A stretch of 64,000 bases of DNA from an uncultured Phycisphaerales bacterium (GTDB lineage: Bacteria; Planctomycetota; Phycisphaerae; Phycisphaerales; SM1A02), in NCBI GenBank assembly GCA_938084645.1, contig CALKEP010000005.1, positions 16,771-80,770 on the forward strand, given 5' to 3'. Shown piece by piece: positions 1,701-48,677 of this stretch (position 1 is its first letter; each line of letters begins with the position of its first letter). The notes under the pieces are model-generated. The model did no database searches. It had not been told where the DNA came from and saw only the letters and a program-made list of their open reading frames with translations. A program made the translations under genes and the position numbers.

Positions 1701-3997
1701 TAGGGCGCTGGGGCCGCGACGAGTCCGCGGAGGCGTTCGAATCGGCGTCGAAACGCCTCCGATCCGTAATCGGGACGCTCGGCCCGCAGCCGATCGATTC
1801 GCGGGCCGATTCGATCGAGGTTTCGGCCGAGCAGGTGGAGCAGTTCAAGTCGCTCGATCTCGCATCGCCACCAGATCGGATCGGCGGGCGTCGTTCCGCG
1901 CACGATCCTGGTCAGGATCCCGATCGCCGCGGCGGCATCCGCGTCGGTGGGTGCGGTGCGCGACGCATCGGATGCGGTGGTGATCCGACCTCCCAGCAGG
2001 ATCGCCTGCAGGGCCAGCGGCTCGGTCGCGTCGGGGTTGTCCTCGAGGATCCGTGCCAGTCGCGCAGTCGCCTCTTCCGGTCGCCCGGCGGCGGCGTCGA
2101 TCCACGCCCATTCCAGAAGCGCGGTGTCGTCGACATCGGACCGCCGCGGGTCTTCGCCCGGCGTCGTTCGGGTCGCGACGGCGAGCACCGCCTCGGCCGC
2201 GGCGCGGGCGACGCGTCGATCGTCCGCATCGAGGGAGGCCACCACCGAGCGGTGCGCCTCTCGCCGCGCCGTCGCGAGCAGGCGACGGGCCAGCGCGGGG
2301 TCGTCGCGCTCGAGCCGCGCAAGCATGCCGGCGGCATCGGCGTCGCGGCCGTCGCGTCGCAGGGCTTCGATCGCGAGGGTCGCGAGGCGTACCCGGGTGC
2401 CCTCGTCAGCCGGCAGCGGCGCGGGGGCGGTCCACCTTGCCGCGATCTTCGCCGCCGAACTGACGCGATCGAGATCGAGCAGGAGTTCGATCCGGACGAG
2501 ATCCGCGTCGACCCGGAGGGGGGCGAGCGGGTCCGCGGGCAGTCGATCGTCGATGGCGTCGAGCCGGCGGAGCAGGAGCTCGGTCTCGACGCCCCGCTCC
2601 CGCAGCTCGCAGATCCGCACCAGCGCCTCCGGCCCACGGGTGGATCGTCGATCGATCGCGTTCCATGCGTCGCGGGCGGCGGCTTCGTCTCCGCGCCGCA
2701 TCGCGCGTTCTCCGGACCGCATGATCCAATCATCGAGGCCGGGATGACGAGGCATCGCGGCGGCGAGTCGACCGATCGTGGTGGCATGGCGTCGATCGTC
2801 GGAATCCGCGTCGGCGAGCCGCGCCGCGAGTTCCGCGGCGCGGAGTCCGCTGGGATGGGCGGGAAGCAGTTCGCACGCGGCGACCAACTGTTCGATCGCC
2901 TCGTCGGCGCGATCCGCTCGGAGGGCCAGGTTGGCGAGTTCGAGACGGGCTTCCACCACGACGTCCTCGTTGTCGGCGTCCAACGCCCGATTCGCGAGAC
3001 GCGTCGCCATCGCGAGGTCGCCGGCCTCGCCGAATTCGATCGCGCGACCAAGGGCGATCAGCGGTGGGGTGCCGCCCGCGTCGTCGCCGCGATCCAGTCC
3101 GCTCGCGATGCCCGCGAGGCCGCGGACGAGTCTGGGTCGGATCCTCGGGTTCTCTTCGGTGGTCCGGAGAAGTTCGACGAGGGCGGTCCGGGTCGCCTCG
3201 GCGATCGGCATCGTCTCGGAGGCGGCCTGGAGCAGGATCGCGGCGAGCAGCAGGCGGTCGGCGTCGCGGCGTCGGATGCGAAGCATGCCGCGAGCGACGG
3301 CGAGCCTGCTCGTCGCGGTCGCGGTGCCGGTCTTCGCGAGTCGATCCAGCCACTCGAATTCGAGTGCATCGACGCCCGCGGGATTCTCGCGCACCCGCGT
3401 CAGGAGGGTCGCGGGGGAACGAGTCGACGCCGACTCCTCCGCGACCAGCGCGAGGAACGCGAGGCCGGCGAGCGTCGGCCCGTCGAGGTCGGTGGTTCGC
3501 TCGGCGGCGTCGCCGAGACCGCGATGCAGGCGCCGCAGTGTCTTCGAGTCGATCCGATCCCGATCGGGGCGGCTCATGATCTCGAGGGTCTCGAGCGTCG
3601 CGGCGAGGCAGATGGCCCGGGCGATGCGGCGATCGCGTCCGGCGCCGGTGGTCGACGCGAGGTCGGATGACGCTTCCTCGACGAGCTTTCCGGCCCGAGC
3701 GAGCGGTGATCGGACGGACTCGGCGAGCTTGGGCGAGAACGGCGTCCAGATCAGGCGGGTTCGAACCCGAGGAGGAATCTCCTCCCGCAGGATCGTCGCC
3801 GCGAGCGTCAGGCGACGATCGGCGCGACGCAGCGGGTCCTCGATCGCCTCGAATTCGAGGCCCGCGCCGGTTTCATCGGTGGCGGTCGCGGCAGGGGTGG
3901 CGACGGGATCGTCCGGGGGTGCGTCGGCCAGGACACCGCTCGCGAACGCCATCGCGAGGATTCCGCCGAGGCGGAGGATGCATCCGGTCGTCCGCAT
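1700..3997 (-). CDS. Large exported alpha-helical (TPR-like) hypothetical protein, ~765 aa
   Basis: Start MRTTGCILRLGGILAMAFASGVLA looks like a signal peptide and overlaps the upstream exbD stop (TGATG). Ala/Leu/Arg helical repeats such as EARLELANLALRADRADEAIEQL. Confidence 0.7.
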   Translation of the reverse strand: MRTTGCILRLGGILAMAFASGVLADAPPDDPVATPAATATDETGAGLEFEAIEDPLRRADRRLTLAATILREEIPPRVRTRLIWTPFSPKLAESVRSPLARAGKLVEEASSDLASTTGAGRDRRIARAICLAATLETLEIMSRPDRDRIDSKTLRRLHRGLGDAAERTTDLDGPTLAGLAFLALVAEESASTRSPATLLTRVRENPAGVDALEFEWLDRLAKTGTATATSRLAVARGMLRIRRRDADRLLLAAILLQAASETMPIAEATRTALVELLRTTEENPRIRPRLVRGLAGIASGLDRGDDAGGTPPLIALGRAIEFGEAGDLAMATRLANRALDADNEDVVVEARLELANLALRADRADEAIEQLVAACELLPAHPSGLRAAELAARLADADSDDRRHATTIGRLAAAMPRHPGLDDWIMRSGERAMRRGDEAAARDAWNAIDRRSTRGPEALVRICELRERGVETELLLRRLDAIDDRLPADPLAPLRVDADLVRIELLLDLDRVSSAAKIAARWTAPAPLPADEGTRVRLATLAIEALRRDGRDADAAGMLARLERDDPALARRLLATARREAHRSVVASLDADDRRVARAAAEAVLAVATRTTPGEDPRRSDVDDTALLEWAWIDAAAGRPEEATARLARILEDNPDATEPLALQAILLGGRITTASDASRTAPTDADAAAAIGILTRIVRGTTPADPIWWRCEIERLELLHLLGRNLDRIGPRIDRLRAERPDYGSEAFRRRFERLRGLVAAPAP

Positions 3998-44677: not shown

Positions 44678-46093
44678 TCAGGCGGGACTCGTGCGACGGT
44701 CGACCGGGACGACGCACCAGGTCAGGAGGAGCGCCGCCGCCGCGAGCCCGAGGGCGAACAGGTAGCTCGTGGCGATTCCGGGTGCGTAGTCGGTCATCGC
44801 CGCACCGCCCTCGGCCCGGATCATCGCCGCCGATGCGACCACGCCGATGTTCCCGCTCATGATCATCACCGTGAGCATCGAGCCGCTGGCGAGCCCGACG
44901 TTCCGTTCCGGGATCGTGGCGATGCCGCCGGCCTGCGACATCGACCAGCCCCACGAGCAGCCGAAACCGACCACGAGCAGTCCGATCGCCAGCCAGGGAG
45001 AGACCTCGGACATCCAGAAGACGACGCAGGCCGCACTTTGAATCGCGGTGGCGAAGAGCAGCATGCGACGGGTGCCGACCCGACGCTGGATCGCGGGACC
45101 GATGAAGCCGGCGATCGCCACGGGGCCGCTGAGATACAGGAACTGGAATCCGGTGGTCATCGCATCGTCGCCACGCACCTCCTGCAGGTACAGGGTCGTC
45201 GCGAAGATCAGCACGCACCAGCAGGTGTTGCTCAGGCTGCCTCCGAGGAGGTAGCCCGCGAAGTGGCGATTGCCGAGCAGCCGGAGATCGATCAGCGGAC
45301 TCGACCGCCGCAGCTCGCAGGGGATGAAGAGGATCAGGGCCAGGAGGCCGCCCCCGAGCATCGGGAGCCACGTCGTCGGGGGTGAATCGGGAATCCACGC
45401 GACCCCGATCGAGAGGCCGCCGATCCCCAGGGTGAGCAACGCGATGCCCGGGAAGTCGATGCGGCCTTCGCCGATGTCGGGGTTCCTGCTCTCCGAGGCG
45501 GAGATCAGGATCAGGACGAAGGCGATCGCGGAGAGCGGGAGATTGATGAGGAACACCCACCGCCAGTCCGCCAGTTCGGTGAAGACGCCGCCCACCACCG
45601 GACCGATCGCCATGCCGATGGTGGCGATGCCGGTGAGGATCGACATCATTCGCGGCAGTTCGGATCGGCTGGTGCTCGCGCCGACCACCGCGGTCGAAAG
45701 CGGGAAGAGGAGCCCGGCACCGACGCCGAGCGCGAGTCTCGACACGATCAGCATCGTCACGGAACCGGCGTATCCGACCCAGAGCGATGCCGCGCCGAAC
45801 AGGACGATGCCCAGGAGAAGAAGTCGACGTCGGCCGTACCGGTCGCCGAGCGGACCTGCGATCGCGAGCACGATCGAGAAGGTCAGGACGTAGCCGGTGA
45901 TCACCCATTGGAGGCTGTCGGCGGAGACGTCGAAGTCCCGTGCCATGCTCGGAAGGGTGATCGCCGTCGCGGTGTAGTCGATGACCACCAGCATCTGTGC
46001 GATGCCGGCGGCGAGAAGCAGGAGCAGGTTGGCGATCGGTCGCCGATGGGCGGGAAGCGGGGTGGAATCTGCTTCAGCGGCCTTCGGGCTCAA
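44678..46093 (-). CDS. MFS transporter (DHA2/EmrB-like)
   Basis: GPLGDRYGRRR motif A, GPVVGG..WRWVFLINLP and PLIDLRL; many TM segments. Confidence 0.93.
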   Translation of the reverse strand: MSPKAAEADSTPLPAHRRPIANLLLLLAAGIAQMLVVIDYTATAITLPSMARDFDVSADSLQWVITGYVLTFSIVLAIAGPLGDRYGRRRLLLLGIVLFGAASLWVGYAGSVTMLIVSRLALGVGAGLLFPLSTAVVGASTSRSELPRMMSILTGIATIGMAIGPVVGGVFTELADWRWVFLINLPLSAIAFVLILISASESRNPDIGEGRIDFPGIALLTLGIGGLSIGVAWIPDSPPTTWLPMLGGGLLALILFIPCELRRSSPLIDLRLLGNRHFAGYLLGGSLSNTCWCVLIFATTLYLQEVRGDDAMTTGFQFLYLSGPVAIAGFIGPAIQRRVGTRRMLLFATAIQSAACVVFWMSEVSPWLAIGLLVVGFGCSWGWSMSQAGGIATIPERNVGLASGSMLTVMIMSGNIGVVASAAMIRAEGGAAMTDYAPGIATSYLFALGLAAAALLLTWCVVPVDRRTSPA

Positions 46094-47052
46094 GGGCTCG
46101 TCTCCACCGCTCGCCCGTCTTCGAGTCGCACCACTCGGTCTGCGTACTCCGCGACGTTCGGATCATGGGTCACCATGACGATGGTCAACCCCGCGTCGTG
46201 TCGTTTCTTCAGGAGGTCGAGGATCTCGCGTCCGGTCGCGGCGTCGAGGTTCCCCGTCGGTTCGTCGGCGAGCAGGATGCCGGGGTCGCTGGCGAGGGCC
46301 CGGGCGATGGCGGTTCGCTGCCGCTCGCCGCCCGAGAGCTGACTGGGTTTGTGCCGGAGCCGGTGACCGAGGCCGAAGTCCTCGAGGGTCGCCCGGGACG
46401 CGGCGGCTTCCGGCCCCGACTGGAGTCGGATCCGCTCGCCGATCACCTGGCCGATCTGGAGGAGCACCACGCCGACCGCGGCCCCAAGCACGCCGAAGAC
46501 GGCCGCGATCACCGCCATCTTCGAGTCGGTCGCGACGTCCGCGTCCGGAAGGACGCCCTGGCCGGCGAAGAAGCCGATCGCGGCGCCGATGCCGCCACCC
46601 ACGATGGCGGCGAGCAGGGGCAGGGTCGCGGCGATCCAGCGATTCGGAACGAGGCACGGCAGCATCGCGTTCTCGAGCACGCTCAGTTCGGGCAGCAGGT
46701 GATAGAACTGGAACACGAATCCGACGCTTCGATTCCGGTAGTGATTCAATTCGGCGTTGTTGAACCGGCTCACGTCCCGGCCTTCGTGCCGGATCGCGTC
46801 CCGTGTCGTGCCGCGGTCGGGCCGGTCCAGGCCGCCGAGCAGATGGAGAAGGGTGCTCTTTCCGCTTCCGCTCGCGCCGAGAATGGCGACCCATTCGCCC
46901 CGACGCACCTCGATCGACGCGTCCTCCAGCACCCGGACCGGGATGCGTCCGAGTCGGTAGGTCTTCCGGACGCCGGTGGCCTGCAGGACGACCTGCGACG
47001 GTTCGCGGTCCGAGGCGGTCTTCGAGGATGTCGTCTTCGGTTCCTCGTTCAT
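46090..47052 (-). CDS. lolD: LolD/MacB-type ABC ATPase with an internal hydrophobic hairpin insertion
   Basis: GASGSGKSTLLHLLGGLD, GFVFQFYHLLPEL, LSGGERQR, LADEPTGNLD and VTHD. ATG 47052 overlaps the permease stop. Confidence 0.88.
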   Translation of the reverse strand: MNEEPKTTSSKTASDREPSQVVLQATGVRKTYRLGRIPVRVLEDASIEVRRGEWVAILGASGSGKSTLLHLLGGLDRPDRGTTRDAIRHEGRDVSRFNNAELNHYRNRSVGFVFQFYHLLPELSVLENAMLPCLVPNRWIAATLPLLAAIVGGGIGAAIGFFAGQGVLPDADVATDSKMAVIAAVFGVLGAAVGVVLLQIGQVIGERIRLQSGPEAAASRATLEDFGLGHRLRHKPSQLSGGERQRTAIARALASDPGILLADEPTGNLDAATGREILDLLKKRHDAGLTIVMVTHDPNVAEYADRVVRLEDGRAVETSP

Positions 47053-48677
47053 TCGTAGCGAAGGGCTCGTACCGGATCGGTGTCCGCGGCCTTGGCCGCC
47101 GGGATGGCGGCGCCGAGGACGCTGAAGACGACCGCACCGGCCATGGTGAGGGTGGCGCTGAACCAGTCGACCTGGTTCGGGATGGAATTGAAGTAGTAGA
47201 CGGCGGGATCCCACATCAGGAATCCTCGATGCAGAAGCAGCGCCGTGCCGACGCACCCGAGCACCAGCACGCCCACGATGGAGAGCAGCGTTCGAAGCAT
47301 CGCACCGCGAATCGCGGCCTGGACCACCACGCCGAGCATCGCCGTGGCGAGGACGAAGGCGGTGATCCACGTCCAGGTGGGGGCCGGTTCCCCCATGGCT
47401 TCGTGGATCGAGTTGATGTTGTTCACCACGATCCAGCCGAGCACCGCGCCGAGCACCGCGCCGGCGAGTCCGATCACCAGCCCGTACGCCAGGAACACGC
47501 CGAGCACCCCGGGACGCGACGCGCCGACGGCTCGCAGGATCCCGATGTCGCGGGTCTTCTCGTGGACGATCGCCCAGAAGATCGAGAGCACGAGTCCGGC
47601 ACACACCAGGTAGACGATCGAGAAGAGGATGCGCATGAGTTCACGCTCCTTCTCCACCGGGCCGATCATGTCCCGCAGCTGTTCGCGCCAGGTGCGGATG
47701 CCGACGAATGCCTCGTCGGGGGGGCGGATCGTCACCCCGCCCTCGTCGGCGATCTTCGCGGCGAAGGACGCGTAGGCCTCGCGGACCGCGTCGCGGAGCG
47801 CTTCGGGCGCGACGCCTTCCGCGGCCCGGACCAGGATCATCTGCACCCTGGCCGGATAGGTGCCGATCTTCGAGAGTTCTCCGGTCTCGTCCAGAAGCTG
47901 CTGATCGTAGATCGGCGCCGCGTCGAGCCCCAGCATCCGCTGGCCGGTCTCGATTCCGATCATCGCCCGGCGGGAATCGATCTGGTAGACGCCCGATTGG
48001 AACTCGTTGGCGACGGAGAAACGACGATTGTCCGGCTTCTCGATCCGACCGCTGGTCGAGATCGGGATCAGCGTGATCTCCACGTCGCGGAGTGGCAGCC
48101 AGAACGCCGGCGCGCGCACCTCGTAGTCGCCGGATGGACCGCGTGCCTTGGTCGCCGAATCGATCTCGACGCCGAGCACCACCTTCGGCGAGTCGCCCTC
48201 GGTGACGGGATCCAGCTGCGGCAGCCCTTCGAGATCGGGAAGGTCGATGCCGTCGAACTCCTTCGCGAGTTCCTCGACCTCCGGGGGGATGCCGTCCCAG
48301 ACGAGGCTCGGTCCGAAGTCCACGACCCGGTCGAAGCTCTCGGGATCGATGCCCCACACCTGCACCCCTTCGGTGCGATTGCCGTAGGGGAGCTTCAGCA
48401 GTCCGAAACTCTCCACCACCGGGGTGGCGGCGTCCGCTTCCGGCCGGGACTCGATCTCGTCGACGAGCAGGTCGTAGTGGGGGATCCCCGGATCCGCGTA
48501 CCGAACGATCACGTCGCCCATCAGGGTCCGACCGGAGTTCAGGAGCATGTCGAGGAAACCCGACATGACGCTCACCACGATGATCACCAGACCGACGCAC
48601 AACGCGACCGCCGCCACCGCGATGAGCGGGATGATCCGGCTGGCGAGATAGCGGTTGGCGAGGAGCGGCTGGTACAC
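47049..48677 (-). CDS. LolC/E-type (type VII ABC) permease
   Basis: RYL..IIVVSVMSGF TM1, large periplasmic domain, EKTRDIGILRAVGA, VYYFNSIP and PAAKAADTDPVRALRYE. Confidence 0.9.
   Translation of the reverse strand: MYQPLLANRYLASRIIPLIAVAAVALCVGLVIIVVSVMSGFLDMLLNSGRTLMGDVIVRYADPGIPHYDLLVDEIESRPEADAATPVVESFGLLKLPYGNRTEGVQVWGIDPESFDRVVDFGPSLVWDGIPPEVEELAKEFDGIDLPDLEGLPQLDPVTEGDSPKVVLGVEIDSATKARGPSGDYEVRAPAFWLPLRDVEITLIPISTSGRIEKPDNRRFSVANEFQSGVYQIDSRRAMIGIETGQRMLGLDAAPIYDQQLLDETGELSKIGTYPARVQMILVRAAEGVAPEALRDAVREAYASFAAKIADEGGVTIRPPDEAFVGIRTWREQLRDMIGPVEKERELMRILFSIVYLVCAGLVLSIFWAIVHEKTRDIGILRAVGASRPGVLGVFLAYGLVIGLAGAVLGAVLGWIVVNNINSIHEAMGEPAPTWTWITAFVLATAMLGVVVQAAIRGAMLRTLLSIVGVLVLGCVGTALLLHRGFLMWDPAVYYFNSIPNQVDWFSATLTMAGAVVFSVLGAAIPAAKAADTDPVRALRYE

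Follow-up and report, generated by a model that had tools for sequence, protein, structure and literature searches.

A LolD-like ABC ATPase encoded in the 64,000-nucleotide stretch of planctomycete DNA analysed here (the window) carries, within its nucleotide-binding domain (NBD), a conserved in-frame insert of about 72 residues with the composition and charge pattern of a pair of transmembrane (TM) helices, and its gene is paired with that of a permease. In our opinion, with a probability of about 0.65, the insert forms a membrane-spanning hairpin that is docked on TM3 and the last TM helix of the permease, is held together by a zipper of glycines, and perhaps passes the movement of the NBD helical subdomain into the membrane. 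ABC transporters are described with soluble or fused NBDs, which are linked to the membrane domains only by cytoplasmic coupling helices. A membrane-spanning hairpin within an NBD would, if real, be an exception to this textbook plan. It would also pose a problem of biogenesis: half of a cytoplasmic domain would be made, the hairpin inserted, and the domain then completed. Membrane insertion, which we infer, would probably be co-translational.

A conserved insert within a LolD-like ATPase

The ATPase gene (46090..47052, minus strand; stop codon 46090..46092) encodes 320 residues. The translation is the very protein quoted in the original prediction, with the same Q-loop stretch, hydrophobic segments, acidic loop, and LSGGE. 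Its match to Pfam PF00005 (ABC_tran; 1.6e-29, 103.7 bits against a cut-off of 25) identifies it as an ABC ATPase. The prediction that all catalytic motifs are intact is borne out by an alignment of 105 homologues. Invariant in this alignment are G59, S61, G62, G64, K65, S66, and T67 of Walker A (residues 59-67, 46852..46878), the ABC signature LSGGE (residues 239-243, 46324..46338), and L260, A262, D263, and the catalytic E264 of Walker B (residues 259-264, 46261..46278), all three motifs being encoded on the minus strand. Q115 and H296 of the H-switch are invariant as well.

The best NCBIfam family of the ATPase is LolD (TIGR02211), which it matches with 227 bits, below the cut-off of 307.75; the score against the curated LolD equivalog NF008639 (192) is likewise below its cut-off of 360. 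The closest solved sequences are LolD chains (2e-52 to 6e-49), represented by Aquifex 2pcj, the LolD of Acinetobacter LolDF (9w35), and E. coli LolD. A conserved stretch around the Q-loop of LolD proteins, the "LolD motif," contacts the coupling helix. In the ATPase studied here, the stretch G111-L123 is invariant among the 105 homologues, and the alignment with solved LolD chains is gapless as far as residue 135. The term "LolD motif" itself has no occurrence in PMC13575116.

Beyond residue 135 the similarity is interrupted. The NCBIfam LolD match is split by the insert, covering residues 22-137 and then about 214-320, and residues 135 to 221 of the ATPase align to residues 109 to 123 of solved LolD chains, i.e., 86 residues stand against 14, which leaves about 72 extra. 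Taken together, the split HMM match and the alignments with PDB chains place the insert at residues about 138-213 (about 46414..46641, minus strand), where it separates the helix after the Q-loop from the one ahead of the signature motif. This agrees with the original prediction, in which an insert of about 70 residues was located at 46420..46650, between the Q-loop and LSGGE.

The hydropathy of the insert (Kyte-Doolittle, 19-residue window, peak threshold 1.6) has two maxima, at residues 144-162 (2.02) and 180-198 (2.72). The former lies in the hydrophobic core of putative helix 1 (residues 144-164, 46561..46623), which contains G152xxxG156xxxG160, and the latter in that of putative helix 2 (residues 179-199, 46456..46518), which contains G190; the acidic loop between them (residues 165-178, 46519..46560; all three on the minus strand) is predicted to be periplasmic. 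Across 90 insert-bearing sequences, two stretches of about 21 residues, at positions 145-164 and 180-199, are essentially free of charge, and there is no lysine or arginine at all at 180-199. The ten residues preceding helix 1 contain on average 1.73 K+R and 0.04 D+E and the fifteen residues past helix 2 contain 3.12 K+R, while the loop between the helices has 2.12 D+E versus 1.23 K+R. The glycines are highly conserved (G152, 0.90; G156, 0.90; G160, 0.82; G190, 0.97), and in the loop L168, P169, D/E172, T175, and R/K178 are each conserved at about 70% or more; apart from the glycines and these few loop residues, the sequence of the insert is weakly conserved. To judge from the sequences, such a composition is characteristic of in-out-in hairpins in which the positive-inside rule is followed. 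Thus, the hydrophobic glycine-rich segments, acidic loop, and basic flanks originally noted in a single protein recur as one pattern in its homologues.

The partner permease and the predicted docking of the hairpin

The gene directly upstream (47049..48677, minus strand) encodes a LolF/LolCE-like permease of the FtsX family (542 aa; Pfam FtsX and MacB_PCD), and the ATG of the ATPase gene overlaps its stop codon (ATGA). Compared with solved chains, the permease matches LolF first (3e-25), then LolE and LolC (to 1e-13); its score against TIGR02212 is 155.5, below the cut-off of 362.45. It has six Kyte-Doolittle peaks, and six TM helices are predicted for it, versus four. The AlphaFold2 (AF2) model of the permease (pLDDT 81.9) places TM1 at residues 15-53, followed by a periplasmic domain, TM2 at residues 335-373, and a coupling helix at residues 375-384 (47526..47555, minus strand). 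The extra TM pair is a predicted hairpin in the TM3-TM4 "door-bar" segment (residues 434-482, 47232..47378, minus strand), modelled by AF2 as helices 434-457 and 460-482; in the profile alignment, residues 430 to 499 stand there against residues 347 to 362 of LolF. Of the features of type VII architecture, the FtsX C-terminal domain is present, the periplasmic domain lies between TM1 and TM2, and TM2 is followed by a coupling helix; in place of a four-TM permease with a soluble or N-terminally fused NBD, six TM helices are predicted in the permease and two in the NBD.

The extra hairpin of the permease occurs in each of the 30 sequences aligned, 12 of which are encoded beside ATPases without the full insert. 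Since it is present whichever form of the ATPase adjoins it, the permease hairpin is an older, family-wide trait and was not gained together with the insert, and a co-occurrence of the two was rejected for the same reason. Rejected as well was the possibility that the ATPase hairpin was copied from the permease hairpin (hhalign probability 0.4%); the best hhalign match of the ATPase hairpin, a non-significant one at 20.6%, is to permease TM3, a low-complexity stretch of Gly, Ala, and Leu.

Of the 31 insert-bearing loci, 27 have a same-strand permease gene directly upstream, and the remaining four end at contig edges; the 19 family loci without the insert that were retrieved all have one as well. 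By position, this shared arrangement makes the insert-bearing ATPase the orthologue of the ordinary one. Within its 97%-complete genome, no other genes match LolCE/LolD better than this permease-ATPase pair, which is also the only LolDF-like one. Directly downstream of the ATPase gene is a gene for an MFS transporter (44678..46093, minus strand; Pfam MFS_1, 6e-53), whose listed TTG start overlaps the ATPase stop by 4 nt (TTGA). This overlap suggests a single operon consisting of the permease, ATPase, and MFS genes.

Functional LolD partners a LolC, LolE, or LolF permease that hands lipoproteins to periplasmic LolA. Lgt is present in the 97%-complete genome, and the Pfam model for LolA finds nothing there. 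Lipoprotein release is therefore a likely function of the pair to judge by similarity, not an established one, because the LolD and LolCE cut-offs are missed and LolA was not found. For the label "LolD type" given in the original prediction this means that LolD is indeed both the top family and the top solved relative of the ATPase; the label is valid as a statement of similarity, the scores lying below the curated cut-offs.

The AF2 model of the ATPase (105 sequences; pLDDT 92.7, pTM 0.85) shows the insert as a long helical hairpin, with predicted helices at residues 139-167 and 176-212 (29 and 37 residues, respectively). Foldseek comparison of this model with the PDB returned the NBDs of MacB, LolD, YbbA, BceA, FtsE, and HrtA, matched over about 225 residues, with a TM-score of about 0.87-0.91 when normalised by the target and about 0.63 when normalised by the query; the latter value implies that the hairpin is covered by no solved chain.

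Modelling of the complex, which had been proposed as a check, was carried out with one permease and one ATPase, whereas a 2:2 assembly is expected. The model reached an ipSAE of 0.70 (0.71, 0.67, and 0.70 in individual runs), compared with 0.00 for the best control; the mark applied is passed by 116 of 157 solved complexes and by 2 of 215 mismatched pairs. Contacts agreed between runs by at least 88%, and partner pLDDT was at least 77. Permease residues 376-390, which comprise the coupling helix, contact ATPase residues 99-135 in the model, including the Q-loop stretch 118-123. This canonical interface between NBD and coupling helix is like that of solved LolCDE and LolDF and may have been memorised by the predictor.

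The docking of helix 2 predicted by the same model has no solved precedent. Residues 181-206 of helix 2 contact permease residues 397-407 in TM3 and 504-517 in the last TM helix. Low-error pairs on TM3 join permease residue 404 with ATPase residues 192 and 196, and 400 with 192, 195, and 196; those on the last TM helix join 513 with 185, 188, and 189, and 516 with 188, 189, and 192. The register of the contacts is compatible with helix 2 lying antiparallel to TM3 and parallel to the last TM helix. The hairpin tip (residues 166-172) contacts permease residues 39-47, at the periplasmic end of TM1, and 504-506. Because the modelled tip reaches the periplasmic ends of the permease helices, the hairpin would run the full height of the TM bundle. 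The caveat to these contacts is that predictors tend to pack hydrophobic helices together. A co-evolutionary signal at the permease contacts was considered and rejected: A/G at position 513 and a residue other than Arg at position 397 characterise one clade and do not track the insert.

In the 1:1 model, helix 1 and the extra hairpin of the permease make no confident contact. This runs counter to the original suggestion that GxxxG motifs could pack against the permease: helix 1 is the one that bears G152xxxG156xxxG160, the modelled contacts are made by helix 2, and the near-invariant G190 is not among the contact residues. The model makes it more likely that the glycines hold the hairpin helices together than that they bind the permease. 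The broader claim that the NBD is anchored in the membrane draws support from hydropathy, from the charge distribution in 90 sequences, from the AF2 hairpin, from the complex model, and from conservation; insertion as such is predicted, not measured.

These observations can be combined into the following mechanism. The ATPase would belong to a LolDF-like ABC transporter (type VII, MacB/FtsX superfamily), its partner being the putative product of the single upstream permease gene. The insert of about 72 residues would span the membrane with both ends in the cytoplasm and the acidic loop in the periplasm, rising from the membrane-facing helical subdomain directly past the helix that binds the coupling helix. 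Helix 2 would settle into a groove formed by two peripheral helices of the permease, TM3 and the last TM helix, and the conserved glycines would zip both hairpin helices together. The hairpin would turn the ATPase into an integral membrane protein, positioned side by side with the permease, and would probably connect the moving helical subdomain to the TM bundle a second time, within the membrane. The helical subdomain of ABC NBDs rotates on ATP binding; a hairpin located in this subdomain may therefore pass the movement directly into the membrane. A stronger version, in which each half-transporter has eight TM helices and the hairpin acts as an intramembrane lever on TM3, the last TM helix, and the gate segment, is tentative, and we regard it as possible though doubtful. 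Such a lever would, if real, constitute a second force-transmission route beside the coupling helix; to our knowledge, no described ABC transporter has one.

Distribution of the insert and alternative readings

Relatives of the ATPase were compared as a set of 121 sequences, comprising the protein itself and its 120 best database relatives. The spacing between the Q-loop and the signature exceeds 90 residues in 103 of these (113-137 in 102, and 93 in a deletion variant), is 57-79 in 17, and could not be assigned in one sequence, from which the motif is missing. Among the 103 long-spacing relatives, 87 have two Kyte-Doolittle peaks in the interval, 15 have one, and 1 has three; as a control, 16 of the 17 short-spacing relatives have no peak of 1.6 or more there. 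The length of the insert is steady within a few residues down to 47% identity. The source names of the relatives are Phycisphaerales, Phycisphaeraceae, or Planctomycetota bacterium.

At the level of genomes, the insert was found in 40 of 304 members of the family, distributed over 19 of 71 genera; 39 of the 40 give an uninterrupted full-length profile match (E <1e-120), and one is a fragment at a contig end. The profile matches the remaining family genomes in two halves (E about 1e-41 to 1e-63). In a class-level sample of 401 genomes, the insert was present in 4 of the 18 members of the family and in the window's own genome, and in none of 23 other families. A phylum-level sample, also of 401 genomes, added one full-length match, in a genome of another class (G250). 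The locus concerned (1727..2722, plus strand) encodes a LolD-like ATPase with 39% identity over residues 10-304 and a two-segment hydrophobic insert at the same site; there is no adjacent permease gene, and the order is represented by 2 genomes only. This insert could be homologous or convergent. A search of 1.84 billion representatives at 50% identity gave a single-stretch match for one (P0055) of the best 150; the remaining 149 all lack a pair of hydrophobic peaks in the interval. Within the window's genome, this is the sole NBD with the insert, which the other MacB/LolD-type NBDs lack. The insert architecture is thus real, conserved, and rare, and the question of conservation among planctomycete homologues, raised with the original prediction, is answered by its presence in 103 of 121 relatives and 40 of 304 family genomes.

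The ordinary orthologues are instructive with regard to function. Insert-less loci (such as L123 and L130-L136) resemble the one described here in having a permease gene directly upstream, a six-TM permease, and 60-65% identity in the NBD core; they differ in their Q-loop-to-signature spacing of 52-59 residues and in having no hydrophobic segment. As many as 264 of the 304 family genomes have orthologues without the full insert that work with the same six-TM permease, which means that the hairpin is dispensable for the basic machine. This insert-less majority, the absence of permease contacts that track the insert, and the existence of a variant without helix 2 (P0003, see below) are counterpoints to any strong functional claim. 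They invite a more modest reading, in which the hairpin resides in the membrane as a passive anchor or assembly aid, keeping the ATPase near the membrane and the permease much as fusion does in MacB, and takes no part in conformational transmission. The weak conservation of the insert beyond its glycines and a few loop residues is in line with this reading, as is the ATGA overlap, a sign of translational coupling and hence that co-assembly matters. We nonetheless consider a purely passive role unlikely, because such a role needs neither a fixed length nor a conserved loop nor specific docking: the length is kept within a few residues down to 47% identity, P169, D/E172, T175, and R/K178 of the loop are conserved, and the modelled docking on TM3 and the last TM helix is specific and reproducible.

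Between the two principal forms are three loci (L120, L121, and L129) and the database proteins P0087, P0097, and P0182, with a spacing of 78-79, in which about 20 extra, mostly hydrophobic residues occupy the insert site. These are too short for two membrane crossings and may be deletion remnants of the hairpin or interfacial, membrane-dipping loops. That such forms exist lends some weight to the view that the full insert does not span the membrane either and is a hydrophobic arm lying on the cytoplasmic surface, a dip into one leaflet, or a cytoplasmic contact element, serving, for example, NBD dimerisation. Helix 1, moreover, is rich in Gly and Ala and only moderately hydrophobic (2.02), and in 15 of the 103 homologues with long spacing its hydropathy does not reach 1.6. 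The two charge-free stretches of about 21 residues, the positive-inside charges, and the conserved polar loop argue against a non-spanning arm, however, as do the predicted helix lengths of 29 and 37 residues and the modelled contacts of the loop with the periplasmic ends of TM1 and the last TM helix. In view of this evidence a non-spanning insert appears quite improbable, and a membrane-spanning hairpin remains the preferred reading.

A tree of the NBD core, built with the insert columns removed, places the ATPase in a clade of 66 sequences, all insert-bearing (SH-aLRT 98). The other half of the tree contains 34 sequences with the insert, 10 without it, and 1 intermediate. The tree needs 10 changes of state, of which its starred branches force only 1; a tree that joins all insert-bearing sequences is 50 log-likelihood units worse (p-AU 0.0535). 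A single clade and one gain followed by several losses are indistinguishable by the tree. The insert is in register across both halves and has the same glycines in each, which favours a single origin.

An insert of this kind might also be an artefact of assembly or annotation, or a recent neutral insertion in a decaying gene: it is the most GC-rich portion of the ATPase gene (0.72-0.73), and a deletion variant with GCGT microhomology at its junction exists. This reading is refuted by conservation across independent assemblies: the insert keeps the reading frame and leaves every catalytic motif intact, occurs in 103 of 121 relatives and in 40 genomes of 19 genera, is steady in length to 47% identity, and is part of the only LolDF-like pair of a 97%-complete genome. 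Fourteen DNA sequencing runs contain at least half of the sampled words of the stretch. Contigs of three of them, from different studies, cover the insert free of indels, and one 5973-nt contig covers 46000-47200 with a single differing letter, which settles the earlier concern about misassembly.

The deletion variant is a near-identical protein of 288 residues (P0003) that lacks 32 residues, G187-A218, including helix 2 (about 46398..46493 in the window); at the DNA level, the gap fits a 96-nt deletion between the GCGT microhomologies. The deletion was not seen in the contigs of four sequencing runs. Since P0003 keeps one TM helix, its topology would break, and the variant represents either a natural loss of function or a fault of assembly. 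In run X3, two short contigs of low depth differ from the window at 8-9 positions of the insert (46420..46524), while their flanks are near-identical; strain-level variation seems to be concentrated in the hairpin.

Several further observations concern individual sequences. Genome G1009 has two full-length insert-bearing copies, on contigs C41 and C6 (E 2e-146 and 3e-146), which could reflect a duplication or a mixture of strains. The insert-bearing protein P0107 (363 aa) has a further insertion of about 40 residues shortly past Walker A; with its two Cys-x-x-Cys pairs, this insertion looks like a zinc ribbon. One metatranscriptomic run yielded short contigs at 46115-46248 and 46754-46900, none of them across the insert, and these are not proof of transcription. 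An apparent joint that skips from 46275 to 46688 in a 698-nt contig was discarded: its shorter side is 33 letters long, and the contig most likely represents another ABC ATPase. Long match spans at loci L023, L029, L035, and L052 were likewise set aside as adjacent ATPase genes joined across stop codons.

Comparison with known transporters

The closest known systems are LolDF of Acinetobacter (9w35, 9w36, 9w37, and 9w2w) and LolCDE of E. coli (7arh, 7mdx, and 9rlc). The presence of one permease gene implies a homodimer, as in LolDF, and the order of elbow helix, TM1, periplasmic domain, TM2, coupling helix, TM3, and TM4 is common to all. Both components differ from their solved counterparts. 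The solved LolD chains, 218-241 residues long, are soluble domains in which 14 residues take the place of 86 in this ATPase, and LolF, LolC, and LolE have four TM helices with a short door-bar between TM3 and TM4, where this permease has its extra hairpin. According to PMC13575116, the door-bar of LolDF extends in the direction of the lateral gates, with TM3 and TM4 wrapped around the periphery.

PDB sequence and Foldseek comparisons yielded no solved structure in which an NBD contains a TM hairpin. Nor was a TM insert in an NBD described in the literature searched, a scope that left out most subscription journals and is hence not proof of novelty. To this extent, the architecture is as unfamiliar as the original prediction held it to be. 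Close relatives share one permease type whether or not they have the hairpin, and would thus provide a natural experiment on the transfer of helical-subdomain movement to the TM helices; the practical reach of such a comparison is limited, the hosts being uncultured marine Planctomycetota.

Two other kinds of membrane-attached ABC ATPases deserve comparison. MacB (5lil, 5nik, and 5gko), in which NBD and permease are fused and which serves in tripartite efflux pumps, shares the type VII fold family, and its NBD superposes on that of the ATPase with a target-normalised TM-score of about 0.87. The MacB NBD is likewise permanently attached to the membrane, but by a fusion of its C-terminus to TM1, whereas here the two polypeptides are separate and the link would be a TM hairpin inside the NBD fold. 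In ABC ATPases of the TagH type, which are membrane-anchored polypeptides too, the TM segment follows a complete NBD; in the protein described here, the NBD itself is split by the predicted hairpin, which separates the Q-loop from the signature motif.
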